Assembly: GCA_965279325.1 (NCBI GenBank)
Contig: OZ257154.1
Coordinates: 5,128,988-5,192,987 of the forward strand
From: Burkholderiales bacterium
GTDB taxonomy: Bacteria > Pseudomonadota > Gammaproteobacteria > Burkholderiales > Ga0077523
DNA: 64,000 bases
Direction of reading: 5' to 3'
The notes beneath the pieces were generated by a model. The model was not told the origin of the DNA, did no database searches, and worked only from the letters and a program-made list of their open reading frames with translations. A program made the translations under genes and the position numbers. This document shows positions 47,447-61,263 of this stretch, piece after piece. How positions within the stretch are numbered: position 1 is the stretch's first letter; each line of letters starts with the position of its first letter.

Positions 47447-49063
47447 TCAACGATGTTCGTGCTCGATGATCCAGTCGTAGGCGGGCAGCGTCAGGAAGTC
47501 GGCGAAGTCCTCGGCGAGCGTGAGCTGCTCGAACATCTTCGCGCCTTCCTCGTAGCGCCCGGCATTCCAGCCCTTGTCGCCGAGCATTTCCTTCACCTTG
47601 CCGAGTTCCTGCGGCACCAGCGAGGAGAAGAGTTCGCGCGTGATCTTGCGGCCGTCGTCGAGCACGCCCTTCGGGCTGCGGATCCAGTGCCAGATCTGCG
47701 CGCGCGAGATCTCTGCGGTGGCGGCGTCTTCCATCAGGTTGAAGATCGGCACGCAGCCGGTGCCGGCCAGCCACGCGCCCATGTACTGGATGCCGATGTT
47801 GATGTTGATGCGCAGGCCGTTCTCGGTGATCGGTCCCTTGGGCTGGAAGTCGACCAGGTCCTTCGCGCTCACCTTGACGTCGTCGCGCTGGCGCGAAATC
47901 TGGTTCGGCGTCTTCATGACCTTGTCGAACTCCTCCTTCGCGATCGGCACGAGACCTGGGTGCGCGACCCAGGTGCCGTCATGGCCGTCGCTCGCTTCGC
48001 GGCTCTTGTCGGCCCGGACCTTGGCGATGGCCGCGTCGTTCGCGGCCGGATCGTTCTTGATCGGAATCTGCGCGGCCATGCCGCCCATGGCGAAGGTGCC
48101 GCGCTTGTGGCAGGTCTTGATCAGCAGCAGCGAGTAGGCACGCATGAACGGGCTCGTCATGGTCACGAGCCCGCGATCGGCGAGGATGAACTCGGGCTGC
48201 TTCTTGAACTTCTTGATGCAGGAGAAGATGTAGTCCCAGCGGCCGCAGTTGAGTCCGGCCGAGTGCTCGCGCAGTTCGTACAGGATCTCTTCCATTTCGA
48301 ACGCGCCGAGAATGGTTTCGATCAGCACCGTCGCCTTCACCGAACCTTGCGGCACGCCGAGCGTTTCCTGCGCGAGCACGAACGCGTCGTTCCAGAGACG
48401 TGCCTCGAGGTGGCTTTCCATCTTGGGGAGGTAGAGATAGATGCCCGAGCGCTTCTTCACGCGGTCCTTCGCGTTGTGGAAGAAATACAGGCCGAAGTCG
48501 AACAGCCCGCCCGAGACCGCCTGGCCATCCACCTTGAGGTGCTTCTCCTCGAGATGCCAGCCGCGCGGACGCACCAGTAACGTGGCGACCTTCTCGTTCA
48601 GGCGGTACTGCTTGCCATCCGGGTTGCTGAAGGTGATGGTGCCCGCGAGCGCATCGCGCATGTTGATCTGGCCGCGGATCTGGTTCTCCCACGTGGGCGT
48701 GCTCGAATCCTCGAAATCCGCCATGAACATGCTGGCGCCGGAGTTGAGCGCGTTGATCACCATCTTGCGATCGGTGGGGCCGGTGATCTCCACGCGGCGG
48801 TCCTGGAGGTCCGCCGGAACCGGTGCCACCTGCCATTCGCCGTCGCGGATGTGCTGCGTCTCGGGCAGGAAATCGGGGAGGCGACCGGCATCGATCTCGA
48901 TCTGCCGGGCCTTGCGCCGCTCGAGCAGTTCGAGCCGGCGGGCGTTCAGGGAGCGGTGCAGTTTCGCGACGAAGCCGACGGCTTCAGGGGTAAGGATCGA
49001 GGCGAATTCGGACGGGACCGGCGCGAGGACTTCGATGCCGGCGCCGTAGTTCTGGGTGCTCAT
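47447..49063 (-). CDS. aceB: Malate synthase A
   Basis: DRRVEITGP, RPRGWHL, LNCGRWDY and MEDAATAEI motifs. Confidence 0.96.
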   Translation of the reverse strand: MSTQNYGAGIEVLAPVPSEFASILTPEAVGFVAKLHRSLNARRLELLERRKARQIEIDAGRLPDFLPETQHIRDGEWQVAPVPADLQDRRVEITGPTDRKMVINALNSGASMFMADFEDSSTPTWENQIRGQINMRDALAGTITFSNPDGKQYRLNEKVATLLVRPRGWHLEEKHLKVDGQAVSGGLFDFGLYFFHNAKDRVKKRSGIYLYLPKMESHLEARLWNDAFVLAQETLGVPQGSVKATVLIETILGAFEMEEILYELREHSAGLNCGRWDYIFSCIKKFKKQPEFILADRGLVTMTSPFMRAYSLLLIKTCHKRGTFAMGGMAAQIPIKNDPAANDAAIAKVRADKSREASDGHDGTWVAHPGLVPIAKEEFDKVMKTPNQISRQRDDVKVSAKDLVDFQPKGPITENGLRININIGIQYMGAWLAGTGCVPIFNLMEDAATAEISRAQIWHWIRSPKGVLDDGRKITRELFSSLVPQELGKVKEMLGDKGWNAGRYEEGAKMFEQLTLAEDFADFLTLPAYDWIIEHEHR

Positions 49064-49200
49064 GGGGATCTCCGGAATTGCACGTCTGGACGGGGTAACA
49101 GCAGAGGTAACAGTGAGGGTGGCAGCGGGATGCCGCGTGCTCGGCAATTGCGCATTATGGCATCGGGTTTTCCCAATTGGCATTCCCGGATGTCCGGCAC

Positions 49201-49238
49201 AAAAAAACCGCCCGGGAGCGATGCGCTCGCGGGCGGTT
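49201..49238 (-). terminator. Intrinsic terminator after aceA
   Basis: AACCGCCCG..GAGCG/CGCTC..CGGGCGGTT stem with an A7 flank. Confidence 0.75.
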
Positions 49239-49261
49239 CGATCGGTCGGAGTCGGAAGGCG

Positions 49262-50539
<1,278 letters not shown>

Positions 50540-50795
50540 GTTGGCGTTCCTCTGTGATGATGAAGAGATCTGGTGCCGGGGCGGGCGTCGGGACTACCCC
50601 CGGGGCCGCATTGGAGCCACGGCCGGGCCGATTCCACAGGGCCGGCCGGAGGTCGATTCCGGCCGACCGGAGGAGAAGGCGCTTTGGCGCCTGCCCCGGT
50701 AAGCACCCGAGCAGTGATGACCGCGTCGAGGATTGTGTGCTCCAGAGGCTATACCGACGGGATTGCGCGGTGCAACAATCCGTTGAGAATACCCT

Positions 50796-50821
50796 TCAAC
50801 TACACTAAATCATGTAGTTGA
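50796..50821. promoter_or_regulatory. Perfect 9-8-9 palindrome upstream of aceA
   Basis: TCAACTACA-ctaaatca-TGTAGTTGA. Confidence 0.45.
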
Positions 50822-50880
50822 GGCGCCAGTGCCCATGGATTCCCGGATTATGGGATCTGGTTTTGCTCACTGCGGCGAAG

Positions 50881-51363
50881 TCAGCCGTCCAGGCGGGTCG
50901 AGGAGACGATGATCCCGTCCTCGTCGGCGTAGAGGTGATCGCCGGGAACGAAGGTGATGCCGCCGAAGGTGACGGGAACGTCGCGTTCACCGGTGCCCTT
51001 CTTGACGCTGCGCAGCGGATGCGTAGCCAGCGCGAACACGCTGACGGGCATGGTCGCCACCTGCACGGAATCCCGGATGCATCCCCAGACGACGATTCCG
51101 CGCCAGCCGTTGTCCACCGCGAGCTGCGCAATCTGGTCGCCGACGAGCGCGCAGCGGAGCGAGCCGCCGCCATCGACCACGAGCACCTGTCCGTTGCCCG
51201 GTTCCGAAAGCGTGGCGCGCACCAGGGCGTTGTCCTCGAAGACCTTCAAGGTCCGGATCGGTCCGCTGCAGGCCGCATGGCCGCCGAAGCTGCGCAGGAT
51301 GGGTTGGAGGATGCGCAGGCGATCGGCATGGGCATCGCACAGGTCGGTTGTCTTGAAGTTCAT
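50881..51363 (-). CDS. rraA: RraA family protein (RNase E regulator / HMG aldolase-like)
   Basis: TTDLCD, FEDNALV, VDGGGS, GCIRD and YADEDG motifs. Confidence 0.9.
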   Translation of the reverse strand: MNFKTTDLCDAHADRLRILQPILRSFGGHAACSGPIRTLKVFEDNALVRATLSEPGNGQVLVVDGGGSLRCALVGDQIAQLAVDNGWRGIVVWGCIRDSVQVATMPVSVFALATHPLRSVKKGTGERDVPVTFGGITFVPGDHLYADEDGIIVSSTRLDG

Positions 51364-51505
51364 GCGCGCGTTGCCGATGAAGAGGGTGAGATGCGAAGCG
51401 GGTTTCGCAAAGGAGGGGCGAGTGGACTAAGATTCAACCGCTTGCATTCTTCAAACCACGAATCCGCGCAGCGGGCGAATCTCCACAACAACCCACAGGT
51501 CATTC

Positions 51506-52753
<1,248 letters not shown>

Positions 52754-55463: not shown

Positions 55464-55592
55464 TCGTGGGTGCCGGGGACGGCTCGGTGAGCATCGAGTC
55501 GTCCTTCGTTGCGCGTCGACCGTTGGCGGACCCGCTGCGTTGAGGACACACGCAGTCCTCCATCGCATTTGCATCCGCTCGAGGAGAAGCCC

Positions 55593-55913
55593 ATGAAACG
55601 AAACCGCTCCGCGCTGCTGGCGATCCTGCTCTCGGTGCCCGCATGGTTCGCCGCCTCTGCGGCGTTCGCCGTGGACGAGCACCCTGGTCGATACGTAGCG
55701 GCGAACTGCACCGGCTGCCATGGCACCCAGGGACGCAGTGTGGGCGGCATGCCGTCGCTGGCGGGACTCGATCGCGCCTACATCCTGAACGCGATGGAGG
55801 AGTTCAAGTCGGGCACCCGGGCAGCCACCATCATGCAGCAGCATTCGAAGGGCTACACCGAAGCCCAGTTCGAGCTGATCGCGGATTATTTCGCGGCGCA
55901 GAAAGCGCGCTGA
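55593..55913 (+). CDS. fccA: Monoheme cytochrome c subunit of flavocytochrome c
   Basis: Signal peptide, CTGCH and TIM axial Met; GAGGAG RBS; adjacent to fccB. Confidence 0.78.
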   Translation: MKRNRSALLAILLSVPAWFAASAAFAVDEHPGRYVAANCTGCHGTQGRSVGGMPSLAGLDRAYILNAMEEFKSGTRAATIMQQHSKGYTEAQFELIADYFAAQKAR

Positions 55914-55935
55914 CCGGAACGAGGAGACGGCGACG

Positions 55936-57207
55936 ATGAATCGGAACAGAAGGCATTTCATCCGCGCGGTCGGCGCCGCGACGGTCGCCAGCGTGGCGGG
56001 TCTGCCGTTGAGTGCGCAGGCAGCCTCGGGTCGCGTGGTCGTGATCGGTGGTGGATTCGGTGGCGCTACGGCGGCGAAGTACCTGCGCCTGTGGAGCACC
56101 GGGATCGACGTGACGCTCGTGGAGCGCAACGCGGAGTTCGTCTCCTGTCCGCTCAGCAATCGCATCCTGGCCGGCACCACCACGCTTGCGGATCTCACAC
56201 GGGGCTACGGCGACCTCGCGTCGAAGCATGGCGTCAACGTATTGCACGACGAGGTGGTCGGGATCGATGCAGCCGGTCGGACCGTCACGCTCGCGAGCGG
56301 CAAGTCGCTGCCCTACGACCGTCTGATCGTGTCATCGGGCCTGGACCTGGACTATTCGAGCATTCCCGGCTTGCGCGAGGAAAGTACGCGGGAGCGTGTG
56401 CTGCACGCCTGGAAGGCGGGGCCCCAGACGCTCGCCCTGCGCCGCCAGCTCGAGGCCATGCCGGATGGCGGCGTGTTCGCCGTGACCGTGCCCAAGGCCC
56501 CCTACCGCTGTCCGCCCGGACCGTACGAGCGCGCCTGCCAGGTCGCCTGGTACTTCAAGCTGAACAAGCCGAAGTCGAAGGTCCTGATCCTCGATGCCAA
56601 CGACAAGGTCGTGTCGAAGGAAGCGTTGTTCCGGAAGGCATGGGAGGAAATGTATCCCGGCATCGTCGAGTACCTGCCCAACAGCGAACTGGTCGACGTG
56701 GACGTGCAGACCCTCACCGCGAAGCTCCAGTTCGACGAGGTCAAGGCCGACGTGCTCAACGTGATCCCGCCGATGAAGGCCGCCGCGATCGCGGAGCGCA
56801 CCGGGCTCATCACCGCGAACAACAAATGGTGCGGCGTCGACTTCCTCAGTTACGAGTCGCTCGCGCAGAAGAACATCCACGTGCTCGGCGACGCCATCCT
56901 CGCGGCACCGCAGATGCCCAAGTCGGGCCACATGGCCAACCAGCATGCCAAGGTCTGCGCGGCCGCGGTGATCGCGCTGCTGCGTGGCGACAGCGTCAAC
57001 GCCCGTCCGGTCATCAACAACACGTGCTACAGCTTTGTCACCGGCGCCGACGTGATCCACATCGCATCGGTGCATCAGTACGACGTCGAGAAGAAGACGA
57101 TGCTGACCGTGCCGGGCAGCGGCGGATTGTCGATCGCGCCGAACGAACTGGAAGGCCGCTACGCCGAAGCCTGGGCACGGAACATCTGGGCCGACATGCT
57201 CGGCTAG
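55936..57207 (+). CDS. fccB: Flavocytochrome c sulfide dehydrogenase flavoprotein
   Basis: Tat NRRHF; GGGFGG, SCPLSN, CPPGPYER, MPKSG and NTCYS motifs. Confidence 0.88.
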   Translation: MNRNRRHFIRAVGAATVASVAGLPLSAQAASGRVVVIGGGFGGATAAKYLRLWSTGIDVTLVERNAEFVSCPLSNRILAGTTTLADLTRGYGDLASKHGVNVLHDEVVGIDAAGRTVTLASGKSLPYDRLIVSSGLDLDYSSIPGLREESTRERVLHAWKAGPQTLALRRQLEAMPDGGVFAVTVPKAPYRCPPGPYERACQVAWYFKLNKPKSKVLILDANDKVVSKEALFRKAWEEMYPGIVEYLPNSELVDVDVQTLTAKLQFDEVKADVLNVIPPMKAAAIAERTGLITANNKWCGVDFLSYESLAQKNIHVLGDAILAAPQMPKSGHMANQHAKVCAAAVIALLRGDSVNARPVINNTCYSFVTGADVIHIASVHQYDVEKKTMLTVPGSGGLSIAPNELEGRYAEAWARNIWADMLG

Positions 57208-57217
57208 AGTTCGCGGG

Positions 57218-58381
57218 TCAGGGTTCCGTCGCGTTCTCCGCGGCGTCCTCCGACACGGTGGTGGCGCTCCACAGCACCGCACCGTCCAGGTTCGAAGGCA
57301 TGCGCGCGTGCGGCAGTACCTCGAGCACCGCGAAACTCGGGTGGCTGGTGCGTCGCTTGGGCATGGCCGGCAGCCGCAGGCCGGCGCCGTTCAGGACCGA
57401 GCGCACGATCGGCTGGCTGGAATTGAGCGTCCGCTTGACCACCACGGCGGTCTCGCCGTTCGCGAGCTGCACCAGGGTTCCCGGTGGATAGATGCCCAGC
57501 TCCTTGACCATCTGCGCGGCCAGGATCGGATCGACGCTCTTGCCCTGGGTCAGGAAGATTTCGCGCAACGCCGCGTTCGGAGCGGTGCCCGGCCGATACG
57601 CACGCTCGGTCACCATGGCGCAATAGCGGTCCGCCAGCCCCACCACCTGGGCGGCGGGCGCCAGCCGATCCCCGGAGAGGCGCTCCGGATACCCCGACCC
57701 GTCGATCAGTTCGTGATGCTGCTCGACCGCCTCCAGCCAGGTGGATTCCGTGACGGACCGGGCTTTCAGCATCGTGGCACTCTCACGGGGGTGGGTGAGC
57801 ACCATCGCCTTCTGTGCGTCGGTCAGCGGTTCGTGCTGGGCATAGAGCTGGTTCTGCAGGTCGCGCATCGCCAGGTTCATGGTGAGAGCGGCACACAGCA
57901 CCGGCACCCGTGCCTCGAGCGACAGGCCGCGCTGGACCAGCAGGAGTTCGGTGACGATCGCGGTGTTGATGGCCTGCCGCACGCTGTAGTCCGGTTCCCG
58001 CTGCAGTTGCAGCGAGCCCAGTGCCGCGTCCGCATCCATGGCGCAGACCTCGATCAACGACCGGGCCAGGTGTGCGGTCGCCTCCGCGATCCGGACACCC
58101 GCCACTTCTCCAGCAGCCTCGGACGAGATTCGCGCGGCATCGGCCCGCAGCGTCGCGAGGAGGGCATAGACGGATACGCGAGCGGCATGCGCCGCTTCCG
58201 GGGAGGCCTGGTCCCATTCGATGTCGCCGTAGATGCCCTGGTCGACGAGGCGTTCGACCTGGCTGTCGGTCGGGATCAGCTGGCCCGCGCGCAGCATCAA
58301 TCGTCCGCCACGGTCGTGGATATCGCACGGCAGCGGCGCTCCGGCACGTATCTGTCCCGCTTCGATCCGTTTCATCGGCAT
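57218..58381 (-). CDS. HD-GYP domain protein (degenerate HD)
   Basis: HHELIDGSGYP and ADRYCAM present; AALTMN where AALLHD is expected. Confidence 0.82.
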   Translation of the reverse strand: MPMKRIEAGQIRAGAPLPCDIHDRGGRLMLRAGQLIPTDSQVERLVDQGIYGDIEWDQASPEAAHAARVSVYALLATLRADAARISSEAAGEVAGVRIAEATAHLARSLIEVCAMDADAALGSLQLQREPDYSVRQAINTAIVTELLLVQRGLSLEARVPVLCAALTMNLAMRDLQNQLYAQHEPLTDAQKAMVLTHPRESATMLKARSVTESTWLEAVEQHHELIDGSGYPERLSGDRLAPAAQVVGLADRYCAMVTERAYRPGTAPNAALREIFLTQGKSVDPILAAQMVKELGIYPPGTLVQLANGETAVVVKRTLNSSQPIVRSVLNGAGLRLPAMPKRRTSHPSFAVLEVLPHARMPSNLDGAVLWSATTVSEDAAENATEP

Positions 58382-58491: not shown

Positions 58492-58890
58492 GTGATTCGA
58501 AGAACCTTTGCCATGACGCTGGCGACGCTGGGTCTCGCGGCGCTGCTGGTGCCGCCGATCAGCGCCGTGGCAGACCAGCCGGCGATCGCTGGAACGTGGG
58601 CGGGCCCGTGGTATCTCGGCATGACCAGCGGCGTGGCCCACCTGACGCTGGCGGGTGAAGGCGCCCTGGAAGGCACGTTGCAGATGACCAACAACGAGAA
58701 GTTCGGAGAGGAAGCGGCGAAGCTGACCCAGGCGGCGGCTGATGGCACCACCCTGCGCTTCAAGGTCACCGGCGCCGATGGCAAGGCGCTCGTGGCCGAG
58801 TTGCCCGTCTCCGCGGATGGCACGAGGATGAAGGGCTTCGCCCGGTACGGCGGCTACAACATGCGTTTCGAGCTGACTCGCCAGAAATGA
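58492..58890 (+). CDS. Hypothetical exported beta-rich protein
   Basis: AGGAG RBS, signal peptide, IAGTWAG motif. Confidence 0.65.
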   Translation: MIRRTFAMTLATLGLAALLVPPISAVADQPAIAGTWAGPWYLGMTSGVAHLTLAGEGALEGTLQMTNNEKFGEEAAKLTQAAADGTTLRFKVTGADGKALVAELPVSADGTRMKGFARYGGYNMRFELTRQK

Positions 58891-58979: not shown

Positions 58980-59378
58980 TCAAGTGTCCGGATCCTTCAG
59001 CGCCTTGATGTACTCCACGAAGGCGTCGATCTGCTCCTTCTTCAGGGTCTTCTCGAACCCCGGCATCATCCCTGACTTGCCCTTCGCGATGCGATCGTAG
59101 ATCTGCTTCTCGCTCATCTTCGTGCCGGCGAGCTTGGGGCCCTTGCCGGCGTGCAGGCCATAGCCGTCGTGGCACCAGCTGCAGTTCATCGCGAACATCT
59201 TGCGCACGTCTAGCTTCGGCTTTTCCGATTCGGCGACGGGTTCCGCGGGTGTCGCGGGCGCTGCATCCTTCGCTTCCGGTGCTTCGTCCGCTGCCTGCAG
59301 CGGTACTGCAATCAGGCCCGTGGCGGCCGCGATCAACGCAGCGGCGATGTTCATCCTCCAGGCGGTTTCGATCATCAC
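58980..59378 (-). CDS. Class I cytochrome c
   Basis: Signal peptide, CSWCH, GPKL and MMPGF; GAGGAG RBS. Confidence 0.88.
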   Translation of the reverse strand: MMIETAWRMNIAAALIAAATGLIAVPLQAADEAPEAKDAAPATPAEPVAESEKPKLDVRKMFAMNCSWCHDGYGLHAGKGPKLAGTKMSEKQIYDRIAKGKSGMMPGFEKTLKKEQIDAFVEYIKALKDPDT

Positions 59379-59420
59379 GTCTGTCTCCTCGCTAACACCC
59401 CAACGAGTGGTGCCCTAACA

Positions 59421-59448
59421 AAATGGGCGAGGGATCGCTCCCTCGCCC
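59421..59448 (-). terminator. Hairpin/terminator after the PQQ dehydrogenase
   Basis: GGGCGAGGGA-tcgc-TCCCTCGCCC with a short A run on the left. Confidence 0.6.
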
Positions 59449-59520
59449 TTCAACGCTTTTCGGCGGCGGCGCGTTTACGCCACGACTCGCGCGTATCGCG
59501 CCGCCTTGTTCCCCGTTACA

Positions 59521-61263
59521 TCAGGGGAGTGCGAACACCATCAGCTGACCCGCGTCGGTCGGCATGGAGCAGAACGGCTCGCCGAACAACGGGCAGTAGT
59601 TGCCGGACACGTGGCTTCCCCAGCCGGTCGCAACGGCAACGTACTGCTTGCCCTTGGCCGTATAGGAAATGATGCCGCCGTGATGGCCGATGCCGTTGTT
59701 GTGTTGCCACAGCAGGGCGCCGGTGCGGGCGTCGAGCGCGTCGAGCTTGCCGTCGGCGCCGGGGACGAACACGAGGTTACCCTTGGTGGACAGCAGGCTG
59801 GCGAGCGGCGGGAACTTGTACTCCTTCTCCCACTTCACCTTGCCCGTCAGCGGATCGCGGCCCGACACGTGACCGAACGCCTTGCGGCCTTCCGGATGCG
59901 TGGCAGTCCAGCTCGCGCCGAAGTAGGTCTGGCCGGAGAACGCCGGGGGCGGATCCGCCTTCACCACTTCGATGTCGAAGCACCATTCCTGGCCGACCTT
60001 GTACAGCAGCCCCGTGTTGGGGTTGTAGGCACCGGTGTTCCAGGAGATCGCGCCGTCGATGGCCGGGCACACGTTGGTGTGCTTGCCCTCGGGCAGCTCG
60101 CGACGGCCGACCAGCTGGCCGGTCTTCGCATCGACGCCCTTGATGTAGTTGAACGTCTTGCCGAGCATGTAGGCGTTGGCGACCTTCAACGGAGCGTTCG
60201 CCGGATCGGCGTCGTACACGAAGATGATGCCGCCCTTGTTCGGGTGCACCATGTAGCGCTTGCCGCCGCGCTCGATCTGCATGAACTCGCCGACCGCGCT
60301 GTCGAAGTCCCACGCGTCATGGGGCATTTCCTGGAACCACGACTTCAGTTCACCCGTGTCGGCGTTCAGCACGACGACCGAGGAGCTGTAGAGGTTGTCG
60401 CCAGGGCGGGCGCCCGCCGTCTTCCAGGCTTCGCCGGCCCAGTCGTAGTCGGGCGCCGGGTTGGCCGTGCCCCACCAGATGGAGTTGGTCGCCTGGTCGT
60501 ACGTGCCGGTCATCCAGCCACCGCCGCCACCGGTCTTCCACGAGTCGTTGCCCCAGCTCGCGCGGGAGCGCTCGTCGCCACCGATGGTGTCGAATTGCCA
60601 CTTCACGTCGCCGGTCTTGGCATCCACCGCGAAGATCGGGCCGCAGCAACCGGCCAGTTCGCCGCCGTTGGAGCCGATCACGACCATGTCCTTCACGACC
60701 ACCGGGGCGCCGGTGAAGCCCTTGTTGCCGCCCTCGACCGTGAGGATCATCTTGTCCCACACCTGCTTGCCGGTCTTCATGTCGACGGCGATCATGCGGC
60801 CATCGGTGGTGCCGATGTACACGTTGCCGTGACCGACGGCCAGGCCGCGGTTGTAGGGGTTGTAGAAGGTGCCTTCCGAACGCTCCTGGTCCAGCTTGGC
60901 CTGGAAGCGCCAGATCATGTCACCGGTGGCGCCGTCCAGGGCCCACACCTGGCCCGAAGCCGAGGTGTAGTACAGGACGCCGTCCACGGCGATGGGGAAG
61001 GACTGCACGCCGCGCTTGCTGGCGGACGGGCTGTGGACCCATGCCACGCGCATGTTCTTGACGTTGGCCGCGTTGATCTGGTTCAGATCGCTGTAGTGAT
61101 AGGCCTTGAACGAGCCGTGATACATCAGCCAGTTGTTCGGGTCCTTGTCGGCATTGGCGAGGCGGTCCCAATCGACCGCGCCGGCCTGCGACGCAACGCC
61201 GATCAGGGCTGCTGCCGACAGCGCCTTGGCGATGCCTGCCAGCTGTGTGCTCCATCTTTTCAT
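59521..61263 (-). CDS. PQQ-dependent dehydrogenase (methanol/ethanol family, divergent)
   Basis: Signal peptide; A.D..TG...W propeller repeats; NRG, GGEL, GTANPAP, GDNLYS and HDAWDFD motifs. Confidence 0.9.
   Translation of the reverse strand: MKRWSTQLAGIAKALSAAALIGVASQAGAVDWDRLANADKDPNNWLMYHGSFKAYHYSDLNQINAANVKNMRVAWVHSPSASKRGVQSFPIAVDGVLYYTSASGQVWALDGATGDMIWRFQAKLDQERSEGTFYNPYNRGLAVGHGNVYIGTTDGRMIAVDMKTGKQVWDKMILTVEGGNKGFTGAPVVVKDMVVIGSNGGELAGCCGPIFAVDAKTGDVKWQFDTIGGDERSRASWGNDSWKTGGGGGWMTGTYDQATNSIWWGTANPAPDYDWAGEAWKTAGARPGDNLYSSSVVVLNADTGELKSWFQEMPHDAWDFDSAVGEFMQIERGGKRYMVHPNKGGIIFVYDADPANAPLKVANAYMLGKTFNYIKGVDAKTGQLVGRRELPEGKHTNVCPAIDGAISWNTGAYNPNTGLLYKVGQEWCFDIEVVKADPPPAFSGQTYFGASWTATHPEGRKAFGHVSGRDPLTGKVKWEKEYKFPPLASLLSTKGNLVFVPGADGKLDALDARTGALLWQHNNGIGHHGGIISYTAKGKQYVAVATGWGSHVSGNYCPLFGEPFCSMPTDAGQLMVFALP

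Follow-up and report, generated by a model that had tools for sequence, protein, structure and literature searches.

Whether a quinoprotein dehydrogenase that lacks the adjacent cysteines above its cofactor can hold such a pair in another loop, and what the pair would do there, is the question raised by a gene for a pyrroloquinoline quinone (PQQ)-dependent dehydrogenase in a Burkholderiales bacterium (assembly GCA_965279325.1). The gene lies in a 64,000-nucleotide stretch of contig OZ257154.1 (positions 5,128,988 to 5,192,987), here called the window. A ring of adjacent cysteines over PQQ was described as early as 1994 (Blake et al., as cited in PMC12276312); it is conserved in XoxF, MxaF, ExaA and PedH and has been connected with the passage of electrons to cytochrome c550 (PMC8546591, PMC12997753), with 'considerable evidence' for electron transfer to cytochrome c by a route that is unclear (PMC8546591). 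Some quinoproteins are without the adjacent pair (PMC8561711, PMC11845868), and hypothetical quinoproteins that have D-Y-D and no ring have been described as of 'function completely unknown' (PMC11845868).

Judged from the sequences compared here, the Cys-Cys displaced to the loop of the metal-binding glutamate (the Glu loop) is a real, conserved and new variation on the known PQQ dehydrogenase. Its most likely role would be that of a vicinal disulfide, Cys206-Cys207, bracing this PQQ-responsive loop where most of the superfamily has an Arg, a reading to which we assign a probability of roughly 45%. A literature search, which did not cover Keltjens 2014 or preprint supplements, found no report of a Cys-Cys in the Glu loop.

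An exported dehydrogenase with a predicted lanthanide site

Window coordinates of the dehydrogenase gene and its features are as follows.
59521..61263, minus strand: gene for a PQQ-dependent dehydrogenase of 580 residues (P0001), of clade A (the 'GCCG' clade), from its open reading frame, Pfam PF01011 and Foldseek
61177..61263, minus strand: predicted Sec signal peptide, about residues 1-29 (MKRW...ASQAGA), read from the sequence by its basic N-terminus, hydrophobic stretch and A-x-A-like end
60844..60867, minus strand: FYNPYNRG (residues 133-140), at the position where relatives have the canonical vicinal Cys-Cys ahead of N-R-G and where 1kb0 has CCDVVNRG in the alignment
60658..60660, minus strand: Glu202, predicted metal ligand, matched in the alignment with the Glu that is a ligand in PedH 6zcv (GGE-F/L)
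60643..60648, minus strand: Cys206-Cys207, displaced adjacent pair of the Glu loop (GGELAGCCGP), present without exception in the 121 aligned sequences
60460..60462, minus strand: Asn268 (WGTANPAP), predicted metal ligand, invariant in alignment A1 (68 sequences)
60301..60312, minus strand: W318-D319-F320-D321, predicted catalytic Asp and lanthanide-type second Asp, with D319, F320 and D321 in 121 of 121
59980..60069, minus strand: Cys399 and Cys428, second invariant cysteine pair (121 of 121), likely an ordinary disulfide

The open reading frame of P0001 runs on the minus strand from an ATG at 61263 to a stop at 59521-59523; homologues of 580-587 residues give 100% coverage from this ATG, and a purine-rich stretch lies upstream of it. 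A promoter search found no sigma-70-like promoter. P0001 matches Pfam PF01011 (2e-63) and the NCBIfam model TIGR03075 (methanol/ethanol quinoprotein) across model positions 3-530 of 530 (428.6 bits, E 3.2e-128). The AlphaFold2 model, based on alignment A1 of 68 clade sequences, has a predicted local distance difference test score (pLDDT) of 86.7 and a predicted template modelling score (pTM) of 0.89, with residues 1-27 modelled as a lone low-confidence helix. In Foldseek, this model matches at least 20 solved methanol and alcohol dehydrogenase chains (XoxF, MxaF and PedH, including XoxF 4mae/6dam, MxaF 1lrw/1h4i and PedH 6zcv/6zcw) with template modelling (TM) scores of 0.82-0.85 and sequence identities of 26-32%. 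By sequence (HMMER), the closest solved relatives are 1kb0 (255.5 bits) and PedH 6zcv (246.3 bits), followed by MxaF and XoxF chains. The earlier note had proposed a divergent clade, which agrees with the 428.6 bits against a TIGR03075 cut-off of 480 and with an identity of 32% at most to any solved structure. On these matches, P0001 is a predicted exported, eight-bladed PQQ dehydrogenase from a clade without characterised members. It is very probably a working periplasmic enzyme that reduces the neighbouring cytochrome c, and by analogy with its family its substrate is probably an alcohol or an aldehyde. A pqqC gene is encoded in the same genome (364.8 bits).

The metal site was assessed across 121 aligned sequences, the query together with the 120 best homologues listed (59-89% identity). 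Position 202 is Glu in 115 of the 121 sequences and Asp in four. Ligand roles are given to residues of P0001 by alignment to solved enzymes. The predicted metal and PQQ ligand residues E202, N268, D319, R139 (in N-R-G) and W250 (the floor Trp) are conserved. For the solved enzymes, the Glu and Asn ligand roles are tabulated in PMC11845868, and the D-x-D motif is a marker of lanthanide coordination (PMC11996626, PMC8546591), by which recent surveys count 15-17 families of such enzymes (PMC11996626; 10.64898/2026.07.10.737718). From this motif, lanthanide use is predicted for P0001, and the lanthanide-type D-x-D reported by the earlier note holds throughout the alignment (D319-F320-D321 in 121/121). 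The Asn of WGTANPAP and the WDFD that it had also listed are both present, the latter exactly at 60301-60312.

An invariant Cys-Cys in the Glu loop

At the place of the canonical pair, the HMMER alignment sets G-T-F-Y-N-P-Y-N-R-G of the query on F-K-G-C-C-D-V-V-N-R-G of 1kb0, so the canonical Cys-Cys is absent from P0001. Position 133 is F, I, P, V or L, 115 of the 121 sequences have Y or F at position 134, and none has Cys at either; FYNPYNRG without cysteines at the CCDxVNRG site was thus correctly recognised from the sequence. The Cys-Cys that had been noticed after the metal-ligand Glu lies precisely at 60643-60648, with Cys206 and Cys207 four and five residues past Glu202. The segment GGELAGCCG aligns to G-G-E-F-G-V-V-G of PedH and A-E-Y-G-V-R-G of 1kb0, and the two cysteines stand opposite V-V of PedH 6zcv and V-R of 1kb0 (HMMER).

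The pair, which the note had allowed might prove unconserved, is invariant in 121/121, together with D319, F320, D321, C399 and C428, a conservation that on this alignment far exceeds chance. A Cys-Cys in the Glu loop occurs in all 26 clade A loci described below and, among 119 superfamily sequences outside clade A and its sister clade B, in P0123 only. In the C207 column, clade B and 93 of these 119 sequences have Arg. Clade B shares Cys399 and Cys428, as do numerous further members of the superfamily, and solved methanol dehydrogenases have a disulfide at the matching position. Exactly four cysteines (206, 207, 399 and 428) are found in 98 of 121 mature proteins, and the only other recurrent pair, Cys557 and Cys565, occurs with both members together (19/19). 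With 399 and 428 taken as one pair, Cys206 and Cys207 are each other's only invariant partner. A vicinal disulfide is likely, since the only other cysteines of most members are the invariant 399 and 428 and the protein is periplasmic.

A probable loss of the ring before a separate gain

A scan of one genome per species yielded at least 590 related loci, of which the best 80 were examined; they divide into 26 clade A and 54 clade B loci. Clade A carries the motifs G-G-E-L-[S/A]-G-C-C-G-P and (G/S/A)-T-x-Y-N-P-Y-N-R-G in Burkholderiales, Rhodocyclaceae, Polynucleobacter, Oxalobacteraceae metagenome-assembled genomes (MAGs), Rhodopila globiformis and Alphaproteobacteria MAGs. The invariant Cys pair spans Beta- and Alphaproteobacteria and one Acidobacteriia MAG, down to 59% identity. 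Clade B, found in many Bradyrhizobium species, Tistlia consotensis and Rokubacteria MAGs, carries G-G-E-W-P-x-R-G-P and Q-T-H-S-P-Y-N-R-G, and adjacent cysteines occur nowhere in its 54 loci. In one clade A locus (L074, 6301-6880) the reading frame of the dehydrogenase changes between the GCCG loop (frame 0) and W-D-F-D (frame 2), through either a frameshift in the gene or a mistake in the assembly.

Trees were built from clades A and B, the paralogues of the genome and 112 full-length representatives of 50%-identity clusters, excluding representatives of fewer than 500 or more than 800 residues; the IQ-TREE input took every second clade A and clade B sequence. With FastTree, clade A and clade B are each monophyletic (SH-like support 0.944 and 0.943, respectively), and the corresponding approximate likelihood ratio test (aLRT) values from IQ-TREE are 77.5 and 97.7. 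The two clades and the degenerate relatives P0123 and P0126 form one group (FastTree 0.80; aLRT 99), nested among sequences without the canonical pair (P0127, P0144, P0125, P0131, P0141 and the paralogue L010). The phylogeny places clade A outside XoxF and PedH: both trees group it with ring-less sequences and away from the XoxF-like and PedH-like paralogues of the genome, which together with motifs stand in for labelled XoxF and PedH reference sequences. The identity of P0001 to every solved XoxF and PedH is 26-31%. None of the Keltjens 2014 type 1-9 reference accessions (listed in the PMC8561711 supplement) is among the cluster members listed for clade A and B proteins, and a literature search on four of these identifiers brought up no paper.

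Among the 119 sequences outside clades A and B, 71 have the canonical Cys-Cys and 98 have D-x-D, and 40 have D-x-D without the canonical pair. The combination of D-x-D and no ring is common in this comparison, and the displaced pair is specific to clade A. The earlier note had pictured a disulfide rebuilt from another loop. The Cys-Cys that it had seen in a different loop stands, and is conserved. For the relocation, loss and then a separate gain is the better reading because clade A is nested in a larger ring-less group, and because sister clade B has no adjacent cysteines yet keeps the cytochrome. The displaced pair is best read, from motifs and trees, as a gain in a lineage already without the ring, with a one-residue insertion, replacing a widely conserved Arg.

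A downstream cytochrome and a clade-specific MoxJ-like gene

The features downstream of the dehydrogenase gene occupy the following positions.
59379..59520, minus strand: intergenic spacer of 142 nucleotides with two strong hairpins, the second (59425-59448) followed by AUUUUGUU, from the terminator-like site and the RNA fold
58980..59378, minus strand: gene for a small class I c-type cytochrome of 132 residues with a signal peptide (P0002), matching PF13442 (3e-12) and PF00034 (1.2e-6)
58492..58890, plus strand: gene for an exported eight-stranded beta-barrel protein of 132 residues, convergent to the cytochrome c gene, from its structure model

The cytochrome gene that the note had seen after the dehydrogenase is confirmed at 58980-59378 by PF13442 (3e-12) and CSWCH; it lies on the same strand, 142 bases downstream. 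Its haem motif is C66-S-W-C-H70 (59169-59183), M105-P106 is invariant, and in alignment A2 the invariant residues are F62, C66, C69, H70, G74, G80, P81, L83, M105 and P106. P0002 exceeds the cut-off of none of the NCBIfam cytochrome models, those of MoxG/XoxG type included. A homologous cytochrome c gene lies directly downstream in 75 of the 80 loci, namely in 74 of the 76 that offer 600 bases of room or more and in one that offers less; the two with room and no such gene are L028 (Rhodopila globiformis) and L056. That the clade has a cytochrome c gene of its own, as had been suggested, is thereby borne out.

Downstream of the cytochrome, the two clades differ. Counting loci with room downstream (22 of clade A, 48 of clade B), a MoxJ-like gene lies 3' of the cytochrome in 47/48 clade B loci and 0/22 clade A loci. 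Its product is a periplasmic binding protein whose best NCBIfam match, below the cut-off, is TIGR03871 ('quinoprotein dehydrogenase-associated', MoxJ-like; 3.9e-18). Conversely, the barrel gene, frequent at clade A loci of Betaproteobacteria, stands beside 14/22 clade A loci and 0/48 clade B loci. The barrel proteins of these loci are 21-48% identical and share the motif G-x-W-x-G-P-W-Y-x-G-M-S/T-S-G; searches of Pfam and NCBIfam gave no match, and the ESM Atlas gave unnamed clusters only. The model (pLDDT 85.1, eight strands) weakly resembles designed, avidin-like and fatty-acid-binding-protein-like barrels (TM 0.60 at most). The barrel gene is possibly linked to the clade A system, an association that we hold as uncertain.

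The spacer between the dehydrogenase and cytochrome genes folds at -66.9 kcal/mol (z = -4.2 against 200 shuffles), with its second hairpin followed by a U-run. Between the two genes, these hairpins may serve in attenuation or in stabilising the transcript.

A brace of the Glu loop as the most likely role

In the mechanism that we favour, P0001 would hold PQQ and a lanthanide through Glu202, Asn268, Asp319 and Asp321 and pass electrons to the cytochrome c encoded 142 bases downstream. Cys206 and Cys207 would form a vicinal disulfide whose ring acts as a second-shell brace of the Glu loop, at the place of the Arg, and would not be a copy of the canonical ring stacked on PQQ. The loop so braced would match one of the two MxaF segments that are re-formed at PQQ loading. 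These segments come from a cryo-EM study of MxaF with MxaJ, the chaperone required for PQQ insertion into MxaF; that study reports change upon PQQ loading in A100-D105 (the ring) and G175-V180 (the Glu loop) only (PMC12276312). The new Cys pair aligns with the end of G175-V180. In our cofactor-free model, blocks 131-140 and 201-210 have a mean pLDDT of 68, and only block 241-250 is lower in the domain (61).

The response of both loops to PQQ in MxaF, that of the ring and that of the Glu (PMC12276312), also suits an alternative in which the pair is a rebuilt ring on or next to PQQ that does the canonical job of tuning PQQ redox and passing electrons to cytochrome c. Further support comes from a pair that is invariant and unique to clade A, and from its place four residues past a metal ligand, in a loop that exceeds that of relatives by one residue. 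Clade B, however, keeps a homologous cytochrome without any adjacent cysteines, so a ring is not needed for the cytochrome partnership, and the pair aligns to a conserved Arg. The Arg in the C207 column is not known to be among the PQQ-contacting residues of solved enzymes. Moreover, the conserved Tyr134 at the old ring position could itself cover PQQ. We consider a rebuilt ring doubtful on balance.

The metagenomic cluster representative P0123 (572 residues, 49% identical) argues in the same direction. It keeps C-C-G-P and the 399/428 cysteines, and has lost Glu202, N-R-G, Asn268 and the catalytic Asp319 (W-G-F-D), which is difficult to reconcile with a rebuilt ring that serves PQQ. P0123 looks like a cofactor-less derivative of clade A. 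Its retention of the pair after the loss of the ligands suggests, from this one cluster, a structural, cofactor-independent role of the cysteines.

Comparison of the two clades further connects the pair with the active site. Clades A and B share 126 positions at 97% or more, including R139, T184, E202, W250, N268, D319, D321 and K343, and only seven positions split A from B at 90% or more: T132/Q, K181/V, G205/P, C207/R, S236/T, D272/L and A405/G. Of these, 132 is next to the former ring site, the Glu loop contains 205 and 207, 181 precedes T184 by three residues and 272 follows Asn268 by four; the Thr that matches T184 binds PQQ in solved methanol dehydrogenases. Since four of the split positions flank the former ring site, Thr184, Glu202 and Asn268, the change between A and B appears coupled to other active-site loops. 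It includes a charge swap, with an Arg lost and Lys181 and Asp272 gained in clade A. Such co-variation speaks against P0001 being an ordinary broad-range Ca- or lanthanide-dependent alcohol dehydrogenase in which the Cys-Cys is a lineage-specific stabiliser without bearing on catalysis, cofactor loading or electron transfer, and so does the absolute invariance of both cysteines down to 59% identity across Beta- and Alphaproteobacteria and an Acidobacteriia MAG. The 40 of 119 superfamily sequences with D-x-D and no canonical pair, from which it follows that the family tolerates ring loss, are consistent with an ordinary enzyme, as is the lack of substrate-specific neighbours in the related loci examined; we nevertheless find this account unlikely.

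Vicinal disulfides are strained and easily reduced. This property would suit free or metal-binding thiols at Cys206 and Cys207, or a reversible switch responding to the periplasmic redox state or to sulfur compounds. A flavocytochrome c sulfide dehydrogenase is encoded 3 kb away, and a review ties sulfur-handling proteins to quinoproteins with adjacent cysteines (PMC12997753). The sulfide dehydrogenase genes are, however, not conserved neighbours in related loci, paired cysteines of exported proteins are usually oxidised, and lanthanides favour oxygen ligands (10.64898/2026.07.10.737718), which counts against metal-binding thiols. A thiol or redox-switch function thus seems distinctly improbable.

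Returning to the braced Glu loop, clade A operons may do without a MoxJ-like gene because the Cys pair braces this loop. One could go further and propose that the Cys-Cys ring pre-sets the PQQ-responsive loop such that PQQ and metal load without a MoxJ/XoxJ-type chaperone, and that the quinoprotein ring at large is a device for cofactor loading and loop locking and not an electron-transfer relay. We regard this extension as speculative and rather improbable. If true, it would make clade A and the sister clade without the cysteines a pair matched by nature, which would reveal the purpose of the ring.

Several observations weigh against the braced-loop interpretation or the wider scheme around it. 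P0001 scores 428.6 bits, under the curated TIGR03075 cut-off of 480.05 that six paralogues in the same genome pass, and D-x-D predicts but does not prove lanthanide use. The Glu loop with the Cys pair is itself modelled at low confidence (pLDDT about 68). With regard to the cytochrome, the clade A locus of Rhodopila globiformis (L028) has none within 900 bases downstream, and co-transcription of the dehydrogenase and cytochrome genes in the window is not certain because a terminator-like hairpin lies between them. Finally, the association of the Cys-Cys with the lack of a MoxJ-like gene is only a correlation that may reflect a single evolutionary event, and the MoxJ-like gene in the clade B cluster of this genome could serve both enzymes.

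For a ring whose role is still debated, these families offer a natural three-way comparison: canonical enzymes with the ring, clade B enzymes without a ring and with a cytochrome and a MoxJ-like protein, and clade A enzymes with a pair in a new loop, the same cytochrome and no helper. The presence of both clades in one genome, together with cultured clade A hosts (Rhodopila globiformis and Paracraurococcus lichenis), would permit a direct test of the ring's role by loop swaps or mutation. Clade A also enlarges the set of predicted lanthanide enzymes without an assigned substrate in freshwater and soil bacteria.

Comparison with known quinoproteins

Sister clade B is 52-58% identical to P0001 and shares S/N-P-Y-N-R-G, W-D-F-D, C399/C428, K343 and the homologous downstream cytochrome. 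It differs in a Glu loop that is one residue shorter and keeps the Arg, in the presence of the MoxJ-like gene and in the absence of the barrel gene. PedH, too, has Lys at the position of K343. PedH/ExaF ('PQQ-ADH type 2b'; 6zcv, 6zcw) resembles P0001 in its eight-bladed propeller (TM 0.83), its Glu/Asn/Asp-x-Asp ligands with W-D-F-D, its export and its soluble cytochrome c as acceptor. The identity is nevertheless 31%, PedH has the canonical Cys-Cys and V-V at the place of the clade A pair, and the P0001 locus has no ped-type gene cluster.

The best structural matches are to XoxF (4mae, 6dam, 6oc5, 7o6z; E 1e-46, TM 0.84), which likewise has D-x-D, and the order dehydrogenase-cytochrome c, with the MoxJ-like gene added in clade B, mirrors xoxFGJ. 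XoxF is, on the other hand, 26-30% identical and has the ring above PQQ (PMC8546591), and clade A is without a J-like gene. The quinohemoprotein alcohol dehydrogenase of Comamonas testosteroni, 1kb0, is the best solved match by sequence (8.6e-75, residues 27-550 aligned), but differs in a haem domain fused to it, in the canonical C-C-D-V-V-N-R-G and in the G-V-R-G that follows its Glu. MxaFI has the same fold; unlike P0001, MxaF is Ca-dependent (D-x-A type), has the canonical ring and comes with the small subunit MxaI and numerous accessory genes, features that are not seen here.

Genomic surroundings and other observations

The genome holds about 12 PQQ dehydrogenase paralogues (G000 loci L001-L010). 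All nine that were aligned, P0001 included, have D-x-D at the metal site, which suggests a heavy reliance on lanthanide-type quinoproteins. One of these loci is a clade B cassette (L008, 1369-4437; G000:C1, about 1.12 Mb) that encodes a cysteine-free D-x-D dehydrogenase (GGEWPGRGP), a cytochrome c (CGFCH) and a MoxJ-like binding protein, so clade A and clade B forms coexist in one cell.

Metatranscriptome contigs from four runs in three studies match the dehydrogenase gene at 88% likeness or more and belong to relatives; they are at most a weak hint of expression, as DNA carry-over is possible. No contig among the same runs matched the cytochrome gene, which proves nothing. A single sub-threshold Rfam match in the coding region (25.6 against 125.8 bits) was dismissed as chance.

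Among the related loci examined, no substrate-specific conserved neighbours were found. The sulfide dehydrogenase and glyoxylate-shunt genes of the window were considered as substrate hints and dropped, as they are not conserved beside relatives. The former, at 55509-57207 on the plus strand and 3 kb away, encode the two parts of a flavocytochrome c sulfide dehydrogenase: first a small cytochrome c, then a flavoprotein with FCSD domains. The latter, at 47450-52750 and about 10 kb from the quinoprotein genes, encode malate synthase (47450-49183, minus strand), isocitrate lyase (49265-50539, minus strand) and isocitrate dehydrogenase (51506-52750, plus strand); this gene set, with several unrelated genes interspersed, fits growth on C2 compounds. 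Adjoining the barrel gene, at 57218-58381 on the minus strand, is a gene for a 387-residue HD_5 protein (HD-GYP-like, 2.3e-17).

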